DNA of 28,607 bases from an archaeon (GTDB lineage: Archaea > Nanobdellota > Nanobdellia > Pacearchaeales > UBA284), in assembly GCA_030619955.1 (NCBI GenBank), contig JAUXAK010000001.1, forward strand, positions 1-28,607, read 5' to 3'. Positions 20,783-28,355 of this stretch are shown one piece after another. Numbering within the stretch: position 1 is the first letter of the stretch; each line of letters starts with the position of its first letter. Both the position numbers and the translations under genes were made by a program. The notes under the pieces were generated by a model, which ran no database searches, was not told the origin of the DNA, and saw only the letters and a program-made list of their open reading frames with translations.

Positions 20783-21046
20783 GGGTAGGTTAGGCTGGCA
20801 CGCTAGCCCTGTGCCGTTTGCAAATGGGCTTTATGGCAAGCTGCAAGAGAAGGAGTTATATATTTGTTAGTAAGTCCTGACTTGGACGTTGAGGTCTTGT
20901 CCTGCTTGATCTTGCCCTAGCAAACTGGGTCAGTTCCGGAAGGAGGCAGCCCTAAGTTAGAGTTAAGATGCTTGTAGGGTTGCAGGACTGAGGAAGAGCC
21001 AGGGTAGCTTTCTGATAAGTATAGAAGCAAATTCTCGAACCTGCCT
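20783..21046 (+). ncRNA. ffs: Archaeal SRP RNA (7S), short form of about 264 nt
   Basis: Helix 8 GGGTCAGTTCC-GGAA-GGAGGCAGCCC. Terminal helix GGGTAGGTT/AACCTGCCT. Helix 5 GTCCTGC(20899-905)/GCAGGAC(20982-988). Alu-like 5' region. TATA TTTAAAAA at 20754-20761. Ends are approximate. Confidence 0.93.
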
Positions 21047-21056
21047 GCTTTAGAAA

Positions 21057-21629
21057 ATGAAAAAAAGAGGACAATTTTTTATAATTGGTGCAGTTATTCT
21101 TGGAATACTAATCTTGGGCTTAGCTACGACTTTTAATATTACATTAAAAAAAGATGAAATTTCCCAGGAAAAGTTTAATGCAATGTGTCAAAACTATGAA
21201 AAAGAGGTTTTTGAAATAAGTAAATATACAATAAACACTCAAAACAAGAGTAATGAGCCAGAATTAATAAAAAATTTTACAATAAAATTCTTAAATTATT
21301 CAAGAACTGTTGATCCAAATTTTAGACTTTTGTATGTTTATGGAAATAATAAAAATGTCACAATTTTCAATTATATTAATCATACCCTCAACATCGATAT
21401 AACAAATGGCACTGAAAATTATCCTATAGAACAATTACAAAGTTGTGATGTCCATGATATTTATATTAATGATATAAGTTTATGTATAAATAGCATTGCT
21501 AATGATAGTATAAAATGGATTAATATCACAAATGGAAAAATTAATAAAAAGTATTCTATTGCTGATGATGAATGCTTTTATTTTATAGCAAGAACAACGA
21601 AAGAGGGTGAAGAATATTTTTGCGAATAA
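21057..21629 (+). CDS. Type IV pilin-like protein (class III signal peptide)
   Basis: MKKRG|QFFIIGAVILGILILGLATTF, then a polar Asn/Cys-containing domain. Confidence 0.75.
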   Translation: MKKRGQFFIIGAVILGILILGLATTFNITLKKDEISQEKFNAMCQNYEKEVFEISKYTINTQNKSNEPELIKNFTIKFLNYSRTVDPNFRLLYVYGNNKNVTIFNYINHTLNIDITNGTENYPIEQLQSCDVHDIYINDISLCINSIANDSIKWINITNGKINKKYSIADDECFYFIARTTKEGEEYFCE

Positions 21630-21655
21630 AAAACAAAAATAAAATAAATAAAAAA

Positions 21656-22147
21656 ATGCAAAAAACAAAAAAACTAACAAATAAAAAAGGAATAAGTGTG
21701 CTTATATCTTATGTTTTACTTATTAGTTTAGCATTAGCAATGGCAGCTGCTGCTTATATATTTCTTAAACCCTTTGCTGAAAAACCCTTGCCAGAAGAAG
21801 CCTGTCCTGCAGGTGTAAATATTGTGCTTGAAGATTATAATTGTTATGATGACGATGGCCAGAAAAAAATAGATATAACTTTAAAAAATCGAGGCTTATT
21901 TAATGTAACTGGGGTGACAATTAGAATGATAAATGAAACAGGTGAATATCCTTTTCTGGAAGGAGGAAAAATCAACCCTTCTTTATCAGGGGAAGATGTT
22001 TTACCAGTCGGCACAACAAAAGAAGCATATTTAATTTATGCTAGTGCTATTTCACATATAAAGATAATGCCATTTAGAAAAGATTCTAAAGGATATCAAT
22101 CATATTGCACAGATGCAATTGTTATCATACCTGTAGAAGGCTGTTGA
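21656..22147 (+). CDS. Archaeal type IV pilin-like protein
   Basis: NKKG|ISVLISYVLLISLALAMAAAAYIFL, with Cys pairs. ATG at 21656 preferred over TTG at 21620. Confidence 0.85.
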   Translation: MQKTKKLTNKKGISVLISYVLLISLALAMAAAAYIFLKPFAEKPLPEEACPAGVNIVLEDYNCYDDDGQKKIDITLKNRGLFNVTGVTIRMINETGEYPFLEGGKINPSLSGEDVLPVGTTKEAYLIYASAISHIKIMPFRKDSKGYQSYCTDAIVIIPVEGC

Positions 22148-22192
22148 TAAAAAGATATTTAAATTTAATAAAATATATAAAATAAATAAAAG

Positions 22193-22660
22193 ATGGAAAA
22201 AAACAGAGAAAGAAAAAAGAAGAAAAAAGGAGTTTCACCTTTAATTGCTACTGTGTTGCTTATTGTTGTAGCAATTTCTCTTTTTACAATTATATTTCTA
22301 TGGATTAGAGGATTTCAACGTGAATCTATTCTTAAATTTGGCACACCAATTGAAACAACTTGCATGAGCTTAAATTATGAAATAAAATTTCATCCAGATA
22401 AAACTCTAGAAATAATTAATAATGGAAATTTTCAAATTTTCAGAGCAGATGTTTATATTACAGACCAAGAGGGTTCAACAAAAAAACTTGGAGTTACGGA
22501 TGGAGATCTTTTAGAAAACATTCTTCCAGCAAGCAGTGCAAGAATATCAGTCAGTGATTGTGAAAAAATAAAAGTAATTCCAGTCTTGCTTGGCACAACT
22601 CAGGCAGGTGCTGAAAAAGAACATGCTTGTGAAAACCAGGCTAAAACTATTTTATGTTAA
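22193..22660 (+). CDS. Archaeal type IV pilin (archaellin/pilin N-terminal motif)
   Basis: KKKG|VSPLIATVLLIVVAISLFTIIFLWI is a canonical archaeal pilin N-terminus. Confidence 0.9.
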   Translation: MEKNRERKKKKKGVSPLIATVLLIVVAISLFTIIFLWIRGFQRESILKFGTPIETTCMSLNYEIKFHPDKTLEIINNGNFQIFRADVYITDQEGSTKKLGVTDGDLLENILPASSARISVSDCEKIKVIPVLLGTTQAGAEKEHACENQAKTILC

Positions 22661-22725
22661 TAGAAAGATTTTTTAATGTCTTTCTCTTAAAAAAGAAATA
22701 AAAAATAAAGATAAAATAAATAAAA

Positions 22726-23223
22726 ATGAAACAAAATAAAAGAGGTATTGCACCAATAATTGCTACTGTACTATTAATTGTTATAGTGCTTGCAAGTATA
22801 GCCTTGATTATTGGTTTTGTAGTGCCATTTATGCAGGAACGAATGGGAACAGCAGAATTATGTTACAAAGCACAAGGAATACAAATTGACTCGCAAGCAA
22901 CATGTTATGAGGATGAGAATTTAATATTAAAAATAGTGTGGAGTGGCAATGAACAACTTGATTTAACAAAAATCAGATTGTCAGTTAGTACAGCAACAGA
23001 AACAAAATCAATAGAAATTCCTGGAGATGTAGATGGTGAATTACCACAACATCCTGGAGAAGCAAGAACCTACACATTAGGATATGGTGGGGGTAGTTTA
23101 GGATTTGAAGATAATTTCAAAACAACTCCTTTAACTGCAGTTTCAATTGCACCTGTGATAAAACCAGAAAAAGGAAATGAAATAACTTGTGATATTAAAG
23201 AGATAGCTATAGAACACTGTTAA
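22726..23223 (+). CDS. Archaeal type IV pilin (archaellin/pilin N-terminal motif)
   Basis: NKRG|IAPIIATVLLIVIVLASIALIIGFV. Confidence 0.9.
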   Translation: MKQNKRGIAPIIATVLLIVIVLASIALIIGFVVPFMQERMGTAELCYKAQGIQIDSQATCYEDENLILKIVWSGNEQLDLTKIRLSVSTATETKSIEIPGDVDGELPQHPGEARTYTLGYGGGSLGFEDNFKTTPLTAVSIAPVIKPEKGNEITCDIKEIAIEHC

Positions 23224-23233
23224 TCTTTTAAAG

Positions 23234-23758
23234 ATGAAAAGAAAAGAAGGAGTAATATGGGTTTCTACTGTTCTTTATATTATGATTAGTCTTGCTATTA
23301 TTAGCATTGTGCTTGTTGCTGTCAAACCAAGAATTGATTCTGCTCAAGACAAAGCAACTATTGAGCAGACAATTATATTATTAAATGAGATAGATTCAAC
23401 AATCACAAGAGCTGATATAACCCAAGGTACAGTACTTAAACAGGAATTTAAAATGTCCAGGGGCTTGCTTACAATAGACTCAAAAGAGGATTTGATAGAA
23501 TGGCAGTTTTCAAGCAGTTATCAATACAGTGAAACTGGCATGCCAATTAAAATCGGAAAAATAAAAGTGCTAACACAAAAAGCAGCTCCTTGGAATGTCA
23601 CATTAACTTTAAATTATGCAAACATGAATTTAACTTATCTGGGTGAGGATGAAAATTATATACTTCAGCCAGCTGAAATCCCTTATAAATTGTTTATGGA
23701 AAATAAAGGGCCAACTGTAGCTGAGGATAAAAACCAGATTGATATTTATGGAATTTAA
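23234..23758 (+). CDS. Pilin-like protein (atypical class III signal peptide)
   Basis: MKRKEG|VIWVSTVLYIMISLAIISIVLVAVKP. Same operon as the other pilins. Confidence 0.7.
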   Translation: MKRKEGVIWVSTVLYIMISLAIISIVLVAVKPRIDSAQDKATIEQTIILLNEIDSTITRADITQGTVLKQEFKMSRGLLTIDSKEDLIEWQFSSSYQYSETGMPIKIGKIKVLTQKAAPWNVTLTLNYANMNLTYLGEDENYILQPAEIPYKLFMENKGPTVAEDKNQIDIYGI

Positions 23759-23940: not shown

Positions 23941-25188
23941 ATGTTAGATCCAAAATTAATAAGGCAAAAGCCTGCTTTTGTAAGAGAAAATTTAAAAAAG
24001 AGGCAGCTTGATACTACTCTTGTTGATAAATGGCTTGTTCTTGATAAAAAATATAGGGAATTGAAACAGAAAGTTGATGCTCTTAGGCACAAGCGTAATG
24101 AGATTTCTGAAGAAATTAATAGACTGAATAAATCAGGTAAGAAAAAAGAAATGAAAAAGAAAATAATCGAAGCTAAAACAACAGTTAAAAAAACAAAAGA
24201 ACTTGAAGAGCAGATTAGAAAAATTGAGTATAAGCTTAAAGAACTAACATTAACTTTTCCTAATCTTGTGGCTTCACTTCCTAAGAAAGAAAAAATAATA
24301 TTAAGTCATGGAAAAGGAAAAAAAGAGAAATGGCAAAAAGATTATTTGCAGATTGGTAAAGAATTAAATTTAATTGATTTTGATTCTGCTATTAAGATGG
24401 CTGGAGAGGGTTTTTATAGTTTAAAAGGTGAAGGAGTTAGGTTATTAAGGGCATTAATAAATTTTTGTCTTGATATAGCAAGAAAAAATAATTATAAAGA
24501 GATTTATATCCCTATTTTAATAAACCAAAAAGCTGCAACTTATTCTGGGCACTTACCAAGATTTAAAGAAGGCATGTATATAACACAAGATGGTTTTTAT
24601 TTAAGTCCAACTGAAGAGGTTAGTTTACTTAGTTTATATGCTGACCAGACTCTAAGAAAACAAGAATTACCTATTAATGTTGTAGCATATGCCCCAAGTT
24701 TTAGAACAGAAAAAGGAGCAACAAAAGGGATTATTAGAACACATCAATTTGATGAAGTTGAGTTGTTCAAATTTGTAAAACCAAGTGAAAGCAATAAAGA
24801 ATTACAAAAAATGATCAAAGATGCTGCACAACCATTAGAATTATTAAAATTACCTTTTAGAATAAAATTATTACCAGCTCTTGATATAGCTTCACAAAGC
24901 AGTATAACTTATGATATTGATGTCTTTTCACCAAGAAGCAACTGGTTAGAAGTTAGTTCATGTTCTAATTGTTTGGATTACCAAGCTAGAAGAGCAAGAA
25001 TTTATTATACTGAGAAAGATAAAAGAAACTTTGTTCATACACTAAATGGTACTAGTTTAGGTATAAACCGCTTGTTTGTTGCAATTCTTGAAAATTATCA
25101 GCAAAAAGATGGAAGTATAAAAATTCCAGCTGTTCTGCAAAAATATATTGGACTGAAAAAGATTGAAAGAAAAAAGACAAAGAAATAA
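23941..25188 (+). CDS. serS: Serine--tRNA ligase (bacterial-type SerRS)
   Basis: MLDPKLIR, N-terminal coiled coil, LSPTEEV, motif 2 FRTE..GIIRTHQF, LEVSSCSNCLDYQARR, motif 3 HTLNGT.LG..R..AILENYQ. Confidence 0.95.
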   Translation: MLDPKLIRQKPAFVRENLKKRQLDTTLVDKWLVLDKKYRELKQKVDALRHKRNEISEEINRLNKSGKKKEMKKKIIEAKTTVKKTKELEEQIRKIEYKLKELTLTFPNLVASLPKKEKIILSHGKGKKEKWQKDYLQIGKELNLIDFDSAIKMAGEGFYSLKGEGVRLLRALINFCLDIARKNNYKEIYIPILINQKAATYSGHLPRFKEGMYITQDGFYLSPTEEVSLLSLYADQTLRKQELPINVVAYAPSFRTEKGATKGIIRTHQFDEVELFKFVKPSESNKELQKMIKDAAQPLELLKLPFRIKLLPALDIASQSSITYDIDVFSPRSNWLEVSSCSNCLDYQARRARIYYTEKDKRNFVHTLNGTSLGINRLFVAILENYQQKDGSIKIPAVLQKYIGLKKIERKKTKK

Positions 25189-25224: not shown

Positions 25225-25563
25225 TTATTTTCCTGCTGCAACTAATCCAAGAATTCCGCCAATTATAGCAAGTATATTAACGCCGCCAAGTATACCAAAT
25301 ATTAGTGCAAAAAGTCCGCCTTTCTTGCATGTCCTTTTATCTCTCATCCATAATCCGCCAAAGATCATTAACACACTAAAGATGATGTATAAAATTCCTA
25401 GTACAATCCAAAGTGCAGTCACTGCTCCAGTAATTGCCGAGATACCCATGGCTTCATACATGGTTACCATAAAACCGCCACCAGCTGCTAATATTATCCC
25501 GCTGATGATTCCTAGGATTCCACCAATTAGTGCCAGAATAAATCCTGCTTCTGATTTAGTCAT
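25225..25563 (-). CDS. Small Gly-rich three-TM membrane protein (DUF4064-like)
   Basis: AGFILALIGGILGII, three hydrophobic helices, C-terminal ILAIIGGILGLV. Strong SD GGGAGGT upstream. Confidence 0.75.
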   Translation of the reverse strand: MTKSEAGFILALIGGILGIISGIILAAGGGFMVTMYEAMGISAITGAVTALWIVLGILYIIFSVLMIFGGLWMRDKRTCKKGGLFALIFGILGGVNILAIIGGILGLVAAGK

Positions 25564-25781
25564 TTTTTAACCTCCCTTAAGTTTATTATATTTGATTATG
25601 TATTTATTCTGCTATCTTTTTTATAAAAAAAGAACTATTCAGTATAAAAAGTTTTCTGAAGACAAAAAATAGTAACTTAATTTGTTTTTTTCTTTATTGC
25701 TATCTTTACTATTTCAAAATGACTTAAATAGAAACTTTTAAATATAATTGTATCTTATTTTGAAATGTGATAAACTGAAAA

Positions 25782-26720
25782 ATGCAAACTGAAATTTTAA
25801 ATGTAAAGGAACAAAAATTATATGACAGGTTGAAATGTCAATTCGTATGGTCTTATCATCATAAAAATCAAACTAAGGAAAAAAATAAAAAAAGCAAAAA
25901 AACATTATTGGTTAAGACTATTTTATTAATTCTTGGAGGATTATTTTTTATAACACCCAGTTATGTTTATACAAAAAAAATTAAAGAAATAGAAAAAGAA
26001 ATTGCTGGGAGAGAAAAATCATTTATAGAAGAAAAAGCAAGAAGTTTAAGTAATGCTGTTGTTTATAAAAAAAATCTGGAAGAACAATTTGGATTTTCAC
26101 CAACAGCAAAAAAAATAAGACTTGGTGATATTATAAATAGTGAATGCAATGAATATGCTTTCTTAGATTCAATTGAAATTGAAATAAAAGATAAAGAAGA
26201 ACCAAGTTTTATTTATCCAATAGAGAATTGGCATATCAGCTCACGATTTGGTAGGAGAAAGATAAAAGTCATGGGTGGTTTTCACAAAGGTTTTCATACT
26301 GGAATTGATTTAACAAAGTTAAGGGGTAATACCGATGGTTCAGATGTTTATGCTGTTGCAGATGGAATAGTCAAAGAAATTGTAAGAAATTATAAAAAAA
26401 ATAAAGGATTTGGACGTTATGTTTTGATTGACCATCCTAATTATGAGAATGATGCAATGAAAATAGAAACAATATATGCACATTTAAGTAAAATTTTAGC
26501 TGAGGTTGGGGATACAGTAAAAGCAGGCGATGTTATTGGAAAAGTAGGAACTACAGGTTTTAGCAGTGGCTCTCATTTACATTTTGAAGTTCAAATAGAT
26601 GGTAAACCTGAAGATCCACGAATATTTTTAGAAGAAAATAGAGAAAAATTTTTGCAAAAAAGCCGTGAAGAAAAGATGAATATGCATAAATTAAAGGTAA
26701 TTGAGTATTTAGCTTCTTAA
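25782..26720 (+). CDS. Membrane-anchored M23 family (LytM) metallopeptidase
   Basis: N-terminal TM (ILLILGGLFFITPSYVY) and coiled coil, then ISSRFG, FHTGIDL (HxxxD), VYAVADG, GRYVLIDH, TIYAHLS, VKAGDVIG.VG.TG, GSHLHFEV (HxH). Confidence 0.95.
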   Translation: MQTEILNVKEQKLYDRLKCQFVWSYHHKNQTKEKNKKSKKTLLVKTILLILGGLFFITPSYVYTKKIKEIEKEIAGREKSFIEEKARSLSNAVVYKKNLEEQFGFSPTAKKIRLGDIINSECNEYAFLDSIEIEIKDKEEPSFIYPIENWHISSRFGRRKIKVMGGFHKGFHTGIDLTKLRGNTDGSDVYAVADGIVKEIVRNYKKNKGFGRYVLIDHPNYENDAMKIETIYAHLSKILAEVGDTVKAGDVIGKVGTTGFSSGSHLHFEVQIDGKPEDPRIFLEENREKFLQKSREEKMNMHKLKVIEYLAS

Positions 26721-26839: not shown

Positions 26840-27193
26840 TTATAGCTTTTCCACCACCTTTACTTTTTCTCGTTGTTCTAATCCAAGCCTTTTATGAATA
26901 ATAGATTTGGCTATTAACCATTGCAGTCTTGATAGTTCTTGTGCAATTGGATTTTTTTCATTCAAGCGAAACATTTTTGCTTTTCCTACTACTCTTGTTT
27001 GTTTAACTAAATTTGTTTCCAACAATTTTGGCCATATAAGCATTAAATTTGAATAACTCACTTTTGCATTTCTCGCTATGTCTGTTAAACTATAGTCAAA
27101 TTTTTGAAAAGTTAATAAAAAATCTAAGATCCTTAATTTAGGTGTGTCCCCTACAACTTGCAAAAATATTGATATTTCATTATTCTTTTTCAT
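26840..27193 (-). CDS. Winged helix-turn-helix DNA-binding protein
   Basis: GDTPKLRILDFL..DYSLTDIARNAKVSYSNL..LVKQTRVVGKAKMFRLN. Confidence 0.82.
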   Translation of the reverse strand: MKKNNEISIFLQVVGDTPKLRILDFLLTFQKFDYSLTDIARNAKVSYSNLMLIWPKLLETNLVKQTRVVGKAKMFRLNEKNPIAQELSRLQWLIAKSIIHKRLGLEQREKVKVVEKL

Positions 27194-27308: not shown

Positions 27309-27602
27309 ATGACTTTGTCAGAAAAAGAGATAATTGCAACAATTTTTAGAAAAATGTTTTTAATGGGAAAAATAGGGCATTCTCATACTTCTTTTGATAA
27401 TTTACAAAAAAGCTTTCCTTCTGAAATCAGAAAAGAAGTCAAAAAAGTAGATAAAAAACTAATCAGCCAAGGTTATCTTTTAGCTGGCAAGCATGGCTAT
27501 GGACTTGGAGTTTCTCTTAATTATAAAAGGCTCTTAGAAATTGAGAAAATAATTGTTGATGTTTTTCCTGAACTTAAAGAAAGATTTAAATTTATAACCT
27601 AA
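27309..27602 (+). CDS. Hypothetical small basic protein, possibly winged-helix
   Basis: GKIGHSHTSFDNLQKSFP..LISQGYL..YGLGVSLN. Properly spaced TATA. Confidence 0.65.
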   Translation: MTLSEKEIIATIFRKMFLMGKIGHSHTSFDNLQKSFPSEIRKEVKKVDKKLISQGYLLAGKHGYGLGVSLNYKRLLEIEKIIVDVFPELKERFKFIT

Positions 27603-27662: not shown

Positions 27663-28355
27663 ATGGTTAAAAAAACAAGAAAAACAAGAAAAGCAAAAAA
27701 GAAAATAAAGAAAAAAGTTAAGAAATTAAAACCAAAAACAAAACATCTTAAGATTTTAGCTGTAGGTGACTTGCATGGTGACTCTCGTCGAGCATCAAAA
27801 CTTGCTGAAAAAGCTAAAAAACAAAAAGTTGACCTTGTTGTTTTAAGTGGAGACTTAACTTTTGCTGAATCTAATTTAGATTATCTTGTAGGACCTTTTG
27901 CCAAACGTAAGTTGGATGTTTTTATTATTCCTGGAAATCATGAGACACTTGCTACTGCAAATTTTTTAGAAAAACTTTACTCGCCCCAGGTAAAAAATAT
28001 TCATGGTAAAGGTTTTAAAGAAGCTAATATTGGCATATTTGGTGCTGGTGGTGCTAATATTGGTCCTTTTCTAATTAGTGAAAAAGAAATCTATGGTGCT
28101 TTAAAAAAAGGTTTTGAAAAGATTAAAAATGTAAGAAAAAAAATTATGATAACCCATGTTCACCCTTCAAAAACTTTGATGTCTAAACTCACTGCTTTTG
28201 TGCCAGGCTCAGAGAGCGTAAGAAAAGCTATTGAGACATTTAAACCAGATATTGCTATATGCTCTCATGTTCATGAAGCTGAAGGCATAGAGGAAAAAAT
28301 TGGAAAAACAAAAGTAATAAATGTTGGCAGTAAAGGCAAGATAATTGTGATTTAA
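27663..28355 (+). CDS. Calcineurin-like metallophosphoesterase with Lys-rich N-terminus
   Basis: GDLHG, SGDLT, PGNHE, THVHP, SHVHE: all five family motifs are present. Confidence 0.93.
   Translation: MVKKTRKTRKAKKKIKKKVKKLKPKTKHLKILAVGDLHGDSRRASKLAEKAKKQKVDLVVLSGDLTFAESNLDYLVGPFAKRKLDVFIIPGNHETLATANFLEKLYSPQVKNIHGKGFKEANIGIFGAGGANIGPFLISEKEIYGALKKGFEKIKNVRKKIMITHVHPSKTLMSKLTAFVPGSESVRKAIETFKPDIAICSHVHEAEGIEEKIGKTKVINVGSKGKIIVI

Follow-up and report, generated by a model that had tools for sequence, protein, structure and literature searches.

Csd1 and Csd2, ShyA and the NMB0315-type enzymes, the bacterial M23 peptidases nearest to the archaeal protein described here, carry an N-terminal membrane anchor, and in ShyA and Csd3 an N-terminal domain, LysM or other, is autoinhibitory. 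Among archaea, Woldo, an M23 peptidoglycan hydrolase of the haloarchaeon Halogranum salarium, has been shown to kill bacteria (Strock et al. 2025, PMC12352652); the same source catalogues archaeal peptidoglycan hydrolases, with M23 in four Nanoarchaeia genomes, and finds DPANN archaea ('Nanoarchaeota') rich in them. An extracellular M23B peptidase has been described in the DPANN MAG LFW-144_1 (PMC8561730). Pacearchaeota and Woesearchaeota encode giant murein-like lytic transglycosylase proteins, fam00969 (Castelle et al. 2021, PMC8204110; PMC9723730), and small-genome Pacearchaeota have been proposed as possible episymbionts of bacteria (Castelle et al. 2021, PMC8204110). Murein transglycosylases of both groups and their possible bacterial hosts have been discussed further (PMC9723730, PMC8204110, PMC10936187). 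The cultivated DPANN archaea all depend on archaeal hosts (PMC11291902).

That DPANN have extracellular M23 enzymes and other murein hydrolases, and that Pacearchaeota may have bacterial hosts, has been published before. An earlier note on this DNA recognized that DPANN peptidoglycan hydrolases are not a new class, in agreement with the reports just cited (PMC8561730, PMC12352652); its statement that the implication for the host is open overlooks the episymbiont proposal already in print (PMC8204110). What is new here is that the signal-anchored M23 enzymes of one Pacearchaeota family form an orthologous group, which evolves fast and keeps its position in the genome. The gain is incremental, consisting of a defined orthologous group, a conserved locus and an architecture; similar genes are common in DPANN genomes.

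A conserved locus in the Pacearchaeota family

The window, i.e., the whole stretch of 28,607 nucleotides that was analysed, comes from a genome (G000) of 480 kb in 62 contigs, 71% complete; 480 kb is a typical size for DPANN. The contig is archaeal, since the window encodes an archaeal SRP RNA, Nre_N/Nre_C, and the small and large subunits of RFC. The M23 gene is an open reading frame with an ATG start two codons past a stop, according to the list of reading frames and their translation; its product is P0001 (Table 1). The candidate TATA box TTTAAATATA is by itself weak evidence of a promoter in a window with 30% G+C, and the box together with the T-runs found 3' of the stop codon is only suggestive.

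Table 1. Coordinates of the M23 gene, its protein regions and neighbours in the window, and of giant proteins in genomes of the family
Feature	Coordinates	Strand	Basis or remark
Archaeal SRP RNA	20783-21046		105 bits
Five tandem pilin-like genes	21057..23758	+	ORFs, weak Pilin_N match; orthologs in L022-L024, L026, L041, L042
Seryl-tRNA synthetase (SerRS), conserved 5' neighbour of M23	23941..25188	+	Pfam, synteny
Candidate archaeal TATA box TTTAAATATA	25737..25746	+	~36 nt 5' of M23 ATG; read from sequence
Complete CDS, membrane-anchored M23 metallopeptidase P0001, 312 aa	25782..26720	+	Stop codon included; ORF list, translation, Pfam
Residues 1-40, short Lys-rich cytoplasmic N-terminus	25782..25901	+	Alignment of orthologs; charge
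Residues 41-63, single transmembrane signal-anchor	25902..25970	+	Hydropathy; part of AlphaFold helix 39-87
Residues 64-137, stalk helix (64-87), then a small linker module (93-136) that is conserved	25971..26192	+	AlphaFold secondary structure
Residues 138-286, M23/LytM catalytic domain with H172, D176, H234, H265, H267	26193..26639	+	Pfam, alignment, AlphaFold
HTGID motif, codons of H172 and D176	26295-26297, 26307-26309	+	
YAHL motif, codon of third catalytic His, H234	26481-26483	+	
HLH motif, codons of H265 and H267	26574-26576, 26580-26582	+	
Residues 287-312, C-terminal helical tail, poorly conserved	26640..26717	+	AlphaFold helices 284-298, 303-311
Metallophosphoesterase, conserved 3' neighbour of M23	27663..28355	+	Pfam, synteny; 69-84% identical in relatives
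Giant M23+SLT protein, G048	L038:1765-10200	+	
Giant M23 protein, G011	L039:190-7551	+	
Giant-protein fragment, G000 contig C45	L002:3-1973	-	M23-like domain without HxH motif

The order of five pilin-like genes, SerRS, M23 and metallophosphoesterase recurs in the genomes G056, G036, G003 and G023. A shorter contig of G054 has SerRS, M23 and the phosphoesterase, and M23 followed by the phosphoesterase is found also in a named Pacearchaeota MAG, in G044 and in G011. Altogether, at least seven further genomes of this family share the gene order at the M23 locus, and the full order from pilins to phosphoesterase recurs in at least five genera; positional orthologs of the M23 gene are found in genera g1, g2, g4 and g9 and in the named MAG. 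One ortholog, P0154, is listed at NCBI as an M23 family metallopeptidase of Candidatus Pacearchaeota (MCX8194072.1). In G011, the positional ortholog (L043:1701-3122, plus strand) is longer within the M23 domain by about 80 residues, which are inserted between HxxxD and the catalytic His and leave the motifs intact.

As other genomes of the family have the same SerRS-M23-phosphoesterase junctions, the contig is not chimeric at the M23 gene, and this objection, foreseen in the earlier note, falls away. More generally, the relatives of P0001 outside the lineage look bacterial, the best of them 36-54% identical over the M23 domain, as would be expected of contaminating bacterial DNA, a chimeric join, or a gene transferred recently and without function. 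Such an origin is next to impossible: it is refuted by the same gene order in at least seven other family genomes, and disagrees with the G+C content (0.28 in the gene versus 0.30 in the window), the archaeal flanking genes, the genome contamination of 0.5%, and the preservation of the catalytic residues across 10 orthologs. Judging from gene order, the M23 gene has long been present in the family.

Two small genes separate M23 from the phosphoesterase in this genome only (26840-27193, minus strand, and 27309-27602, plus strand), one of them with a weak ArnR1-like winged-helix match; in relatives, M23 and the phosphoesterase are directly adjacent. Divergent to the M23 gene is a gene for a small, DUF4064-like polytopic membrane protein (25225-25563, minus strand), a 50%-identical copy of which occupies the same place on the plus strand in G056.

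The presence of pilins about 2 kb upstream of M23 had been noted before, correctly, as the last of the five pilin-like genes ends 2.0 kb 5' of it. The cooperation of pilins and M23 that was built on this adjacency is not supported, since two genera, g3 and g7, keep pilins, SerRS and phosphoesterase with another gene in the M23 slot. With the pilin cluster, SerRS and phosphoesterase in place, the slot is taken in the single-contig genome G046 by a methyltransferase (L041:1878-2522, minus strand) and in G017 by a 151-aa polytopic membrane protein (L042:1621-2073, minus strand). The adjacency of pilins and M23 looks like shared descent rather than coupling. M23 domains are found in 19 of the 23 other genomes of the family, as against 19 of 156 in the largest sister family (f9). 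The enzyme is dispensable, because it is missing from four family genomes, including the single-contig G046 with the methyltransferase in its slot.

The syntenic proteins follow a common plan, in which a variable cytoplasmic domain, a basic stretch, one transmembrane helix, a stalk, a conserved linker, the M23 domain and a tail succeed each other. Their sequences diverge fast: overall identity of the orthologs to P0001 is 25-31%, and identity of the M23 protein is 27-36% between genera in which the neighbouring genes reach 41-84%. Mean pairwise identity is 35% in the M23 core, 24% in the linker, and 15-18% in the tail (16%), transmembrane helix and N-terminus. The neighbours are better conserved, with 76-84% identity for the phosphoesterase, 70-76% for RFC-S, 41-65% for SerRS and 38-56% for the pilins. 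Fast divergence with fixed catalytic residues, against such neighbours, would suit an exposed interaction protein.

Fast divergence, combined with the patchy distribution in the order (seen in f9), also recalls weaponised hydrolases, and some archaeal M23 hydrolases do kill bacteria (PMC12352652). P0001 might then be a competitive, bacteriocin-like weapon or a defence against bacteria, in the role of Woldo, instead of serving stable contact with a host or prey. We find this quite improbable, as P0001 is anchored in the membrane and not released, is missing a wall-targeting domain, and within its own family behaves as a stable positional ortholog, not as a mobile cassette.

Trees of the M23 domain (128-132 columns) have poorly resolved branching and allow no donor to be named. 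Monophyly of 8 orthologs is not rejected by the AU test (p 0.635, run without P0269, a near copy of one ortholog), the constrained tree being better by 10.4 log-likelihood units. A profile search of the protein database retrieved mostly bacterial M23 proteins and gained only two orthologs, P0268 and P0269; the search for related loci with P0001 retrieved only five, all bacterial. The top matches of an exhaustive search, P0121, P0124, P0131 and P0138, were rejected as orthologs: they are polytopic, and two tandem M23 domains inflate their score. We read them, from this layout, as bacterial proteins of the BlaR1/M56 type. A phage origin was also rejected, since the M23 domains of phages reach no more than about 40% identity and are no closer than the bacterial ones. 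Genus g6 and family f9, both within this order, have small M23 proteins with all catalytic motifs (L015, L017, L018 and L019; ORFs of 145-180 aa), which have neither a transmembrane segment nor a signal peptide and are apparently cytoplasmic. Sequencing runs searched for the locus gave two runs with only 6-9% of the sampled words, none of them RNA.

Fold, active site and orientation of P0001

By all sequence and fold criteria applied, P0001 is a member of family M23. The Peptidase_M23 profile (PF01551) matches with an E-value of 2e-25 and 89.2 bits against a cut-off of 28.7, over residues 171-279 and essentially the full length of the profile (positions 2-96 of 96). An intact enzyme with complete zinc ligands had been proposed from the HTGID and HLH motifs, and this is borne out, with all five residues present. 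The zinc ligands, as assigned by motif, are H172 and D176 (HxxxD) and H267 (second His of HxH); the catalytic histidines, H265 (first His of HxH) and H234 (YxHL motif), align with the same residues of Csd1. All five are invariant in 8 aligned orthologs and kept in two further positional orthologs. Zinc binding and endopeptidase activity may be expected from this conservation.

The AlphaFold model of P0001, built with an alignment of 56 rows, has a mean pLDDT of 80.9, rising to about 95 over the M23 core. Murein DD-endopeptidases are the top PDB matches by phmmer, Foldseek and VIA-align alike. In phmmer, the best match is Csd1 of Helicobacter pylori (5j1l_A, E 5.8e-18), followed by NMB0315, 6muk and ShyA. 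In VIA-align, the M23 core is superimposed on ShyA, NMB0315, 6muk and 2gu1 with Z of 18-20, rmsd of about 2 A and 35-41% identity; the values are Z 20.4 and rmsd 1.9 A over 130 residues for ShyA (6ue4_A), and 40-41% identity for NMB0315 and 6muk. Lysostaphin and LytM score slightly below the DD-endopeptidases, and LasA-type proteases reach a Z of only about 12. The alignments with Csd1 and Csd2 extend over model residues 92-312, including the linker, which is a small alpha/beta element of 45 residues (93-136), and the C-terminal helix; the two tail helices (284-298 and 303-311) are modelled with pLDDT of 50-65. No LysM, OapA, SH3b or PG_binding module was found in any of the 8 orthologs at Pfam E-values up to 1, and a permissive Pfam scan found no credible family for the N-terminal, stalk and linker parts.

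P0001 has one hydrophobic segment, residues 41-63, with a mean Kyte-Doolittle value of 1.98 over 19 residues, which follows a Lys-rich stretch. The 20 residues on its N-side have a net charge of +6, and in 8 of 8 aligned orthologs the 20-residue flanks carry +3 to +12 on the N-side and -1 to +2 on the C-side. The positive-inside rule puts the N-terminus in the cytoplasm, so an outward-facing enzyme is predicted for each of the 8 aligned orthologs; a cytoplasm-facing domain, which the earlier note held to be fatal to its proposal, is contrary to this prediction. In the orthologs, roughly 80-270 residues precede the transmembrane helix, compared with 40 in P0001. Starting so far from the N-terminus, this helix serves as a signal anchor, not as a signal peptide that is cleaved off or as a prepilin signal. 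A pilin-type protein was rejected on the same grounds: a class III (prepilin) signal, with K/R-G before a hydrophobic helix at the very N-terminus, is absent from P0001, whose transmembrane segment starts at residue 41, and at about 80 to 270 in the orthologs.

The model has residues 39-87 as one continuous helix, of which only about 25 residues project past the membrane. Of the transmembrane segment plus coiled-coil stalk proposed earlier, the single anchor and its helical extension stand, but the stalk is short. With such a tether, the M23 domain may not reach beyond an S-layer. On diderm bacteria, where the outer membrane is a barrier, P0001 could not reach murein without help.

The short tether, keeping the M23 domain near the cell's own membrane, raises the question of whether proteins, rather than murein, might be the substrate, such as pilins, S-layer or giant proteins of the same cell or surface proteins of a partner, cut at Gly- or Ala-rich sites in the way LasA, beta-lytic protease and pseudoalterin act on elastin. 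No wall-binding domain was found, the gene lies beside a conserved pilin cluster, and M23 enzymes with protein substrates are among the fold matches, if at the lower Z of about 12. We nevertheless hold an extracellular protease of this kind to be rather unlikely. The nearest relatives in sequence and structure are murein DD-endopeptidases (Z 18-20), the family co-encodes SLT domains, whose sole known substrate class is murein glycan, and the pilins persist in genera that have no M23 gene.

Wall-cutting genes and the proposed function

We searched 24 genomes of the family, five of them at least 90% complete and G000 itself 71%, for genes of wall synthesis. Neither the Mur-ligase middle domain (Mur_ligase_M) nor SEDS polymerases were found in any of the 24, in searches that were positive in control genomes. 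The lineage thus appears to make neither murein nor pseudomurein, in line with the earlier statement that it is not known to make peptidoglycan. For this reason, peptidoglycan of bacteria is the most likely target of P0001.

Other genes of the family point the same way. SLT (GH23) lytic transglycosylase domains are encoded in 15 of 24 family genomes. In G000, contig C23 has a gene (L037:2267-3403, minus strand) for a 378-aa protein, in which a prepilin-like N-terminus (MKNKRG, then a hydrophobic helix) is joined to an SLT/GH23 domain with the E-S motif. Around this gene lie four or five others with pilin-like N-termini; the polytopic protein beside it gave no Pfam match when pilus-assembly genes were sought. 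From its sequence and setting, the pilin-like SLT protein would be more likely than the product of the M23 gene to act as a wall hydrolase linked to pili. Relatives also encode giant proteins of 2400-2800 aa, conserved in the family, with an M23 domain, followed in G048 by SLT; the giant M23+SLT proteins probably correspond to fam00969 (Castelle et al. 2021, PMC8204110). Since SLT enzymes act on murein glycan, the combined M23 and SLT toolkit indicates bacterial murein as the target.

The co-encoded SLT domains bear also on the notion that the enzyme acts on pseudomurein or some other archaeal wall polymer of an archaeal host, e.g., a methanogen. This would agree with the archaeal hosts of all cultivated DPANN (PMC11291902). 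It is very improbable, as the SLT domains point to murein. The known pseudomurein endoisopeptidases are cysteine peptidases and do not belong to M23, and no SLT-type enzyme is known to cut the beta-1,3 talosaminuronic linkage.

Our preferred reading, which we consider probable, is that P0001 is a membrane-held, outward-facing M23 endopeptidase that, together with the SLT proteins, cleaves cross-links in the murein of a bacterium in contact with the cell. One transmembrane helix at the N-terminus would hold the zinc endopeptidase in the archaeal membrane with its catalytic domain outside, and the anchored enzyme would cut peptide cross-links in the peptidoglycan of bacteria touched by the cell; bacterial murein is the most likely substrate, and action would take place at cell-cell contact. 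P0001 may be the part closest to the membrane in a small wall-cutting set that is conserved in the lineage and would further include the SLT proteins, one of them pilin-like in G000, and the giant surface proteins with M23 and SLT domains.

The contact-dependent model of the earlier note had a second half, the scavenging of wall material, and this gains no support: neither the muropeptide-recycling kinase AnmK nor Amidase_2 was found in the 24 family genomes. Their absence seems to fit breaching or attachment better than scavenging of wall sugars. We suggest, much more tentatively, that the family lives attached to bacteria, most plausibly monoderm or CPR-type bacteria with exposed murein, and not to archaea. 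It might open their walls with a conserved three-part apparatus, made of the pilin-like SLT protein, the giant M23+SLT surface protein, and the anchored M23 enzyme at the closest apposition of the membranes. On this view, the cytoplasmic N-terminal domain of the anchored enzyme, which is variable, could couple it to intracellular partners. The ecological question touched upon is whether large uncultured groups such as Pacearchaeota live on bacteria instead of archaea. For this question P0001, with 312 aa and an ectodomain of about 250 aa, is a concrete and easily expressed test object.

P0001 and the known M23 and murein-cutting proteins

P0001 shares the LytM core, with HxxxD, catalytic His and HxH, with Csd1/Csd2 (PDB structure 5J1L, deposited as 'TagE'), ShyA of Vibrio cholerae (6UE4, 6U2A) and Neisseria NMB0315 / 6MUK, to which it is 37-41% identical. 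The likeness to Csd1/Csd2 goes further, in that the segment preceding the domain and the C-terminal helix are aligned as well. The bacterial DD-endopeptidases of the ShyA / MepM / Csd1-3 type remodel the sacculus of the cell that produces them, whereas P0001 belongs to a lineage without wall-synthesis genes. P0001 and its orthologs also differ in having no detectable LysM, OapA or other N-terminal regulatory or wall-binding domain, and the orthologs have a cytoplasmic N-terminal domain, of the variable length given above, with no Pfam match.

Like Woldo and the M23B peptidase of LFW-144_1, P0001 is an archaeal enzyme that has no wall of its own to act on and is read as aimed at bacteria. Woldo, however, is secreted and modular, with two PG_binding_1 domains, while P0001 is anchored and has no binding module. 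PF01551 is the only domain found on P0001, which is therefore without the pair of catalytic and recognised cell-wall-binding domain sought by Strock et al. 2025 (PMC12352652). Proteins of this type lie outside that census, since only those with a wall-binding domain were counted (PMC12352652), and the Csd1-like architecture of the P0001 group would escape domain-pair censuses in general. The fam00969 giants come from the same lineage as P0001 and have the same inferred target, bacterial murein. P0001 is distinct from them in its length of 312 aa, its peptidase domain alone, its one transmembrane helix, and its different conserved locus.
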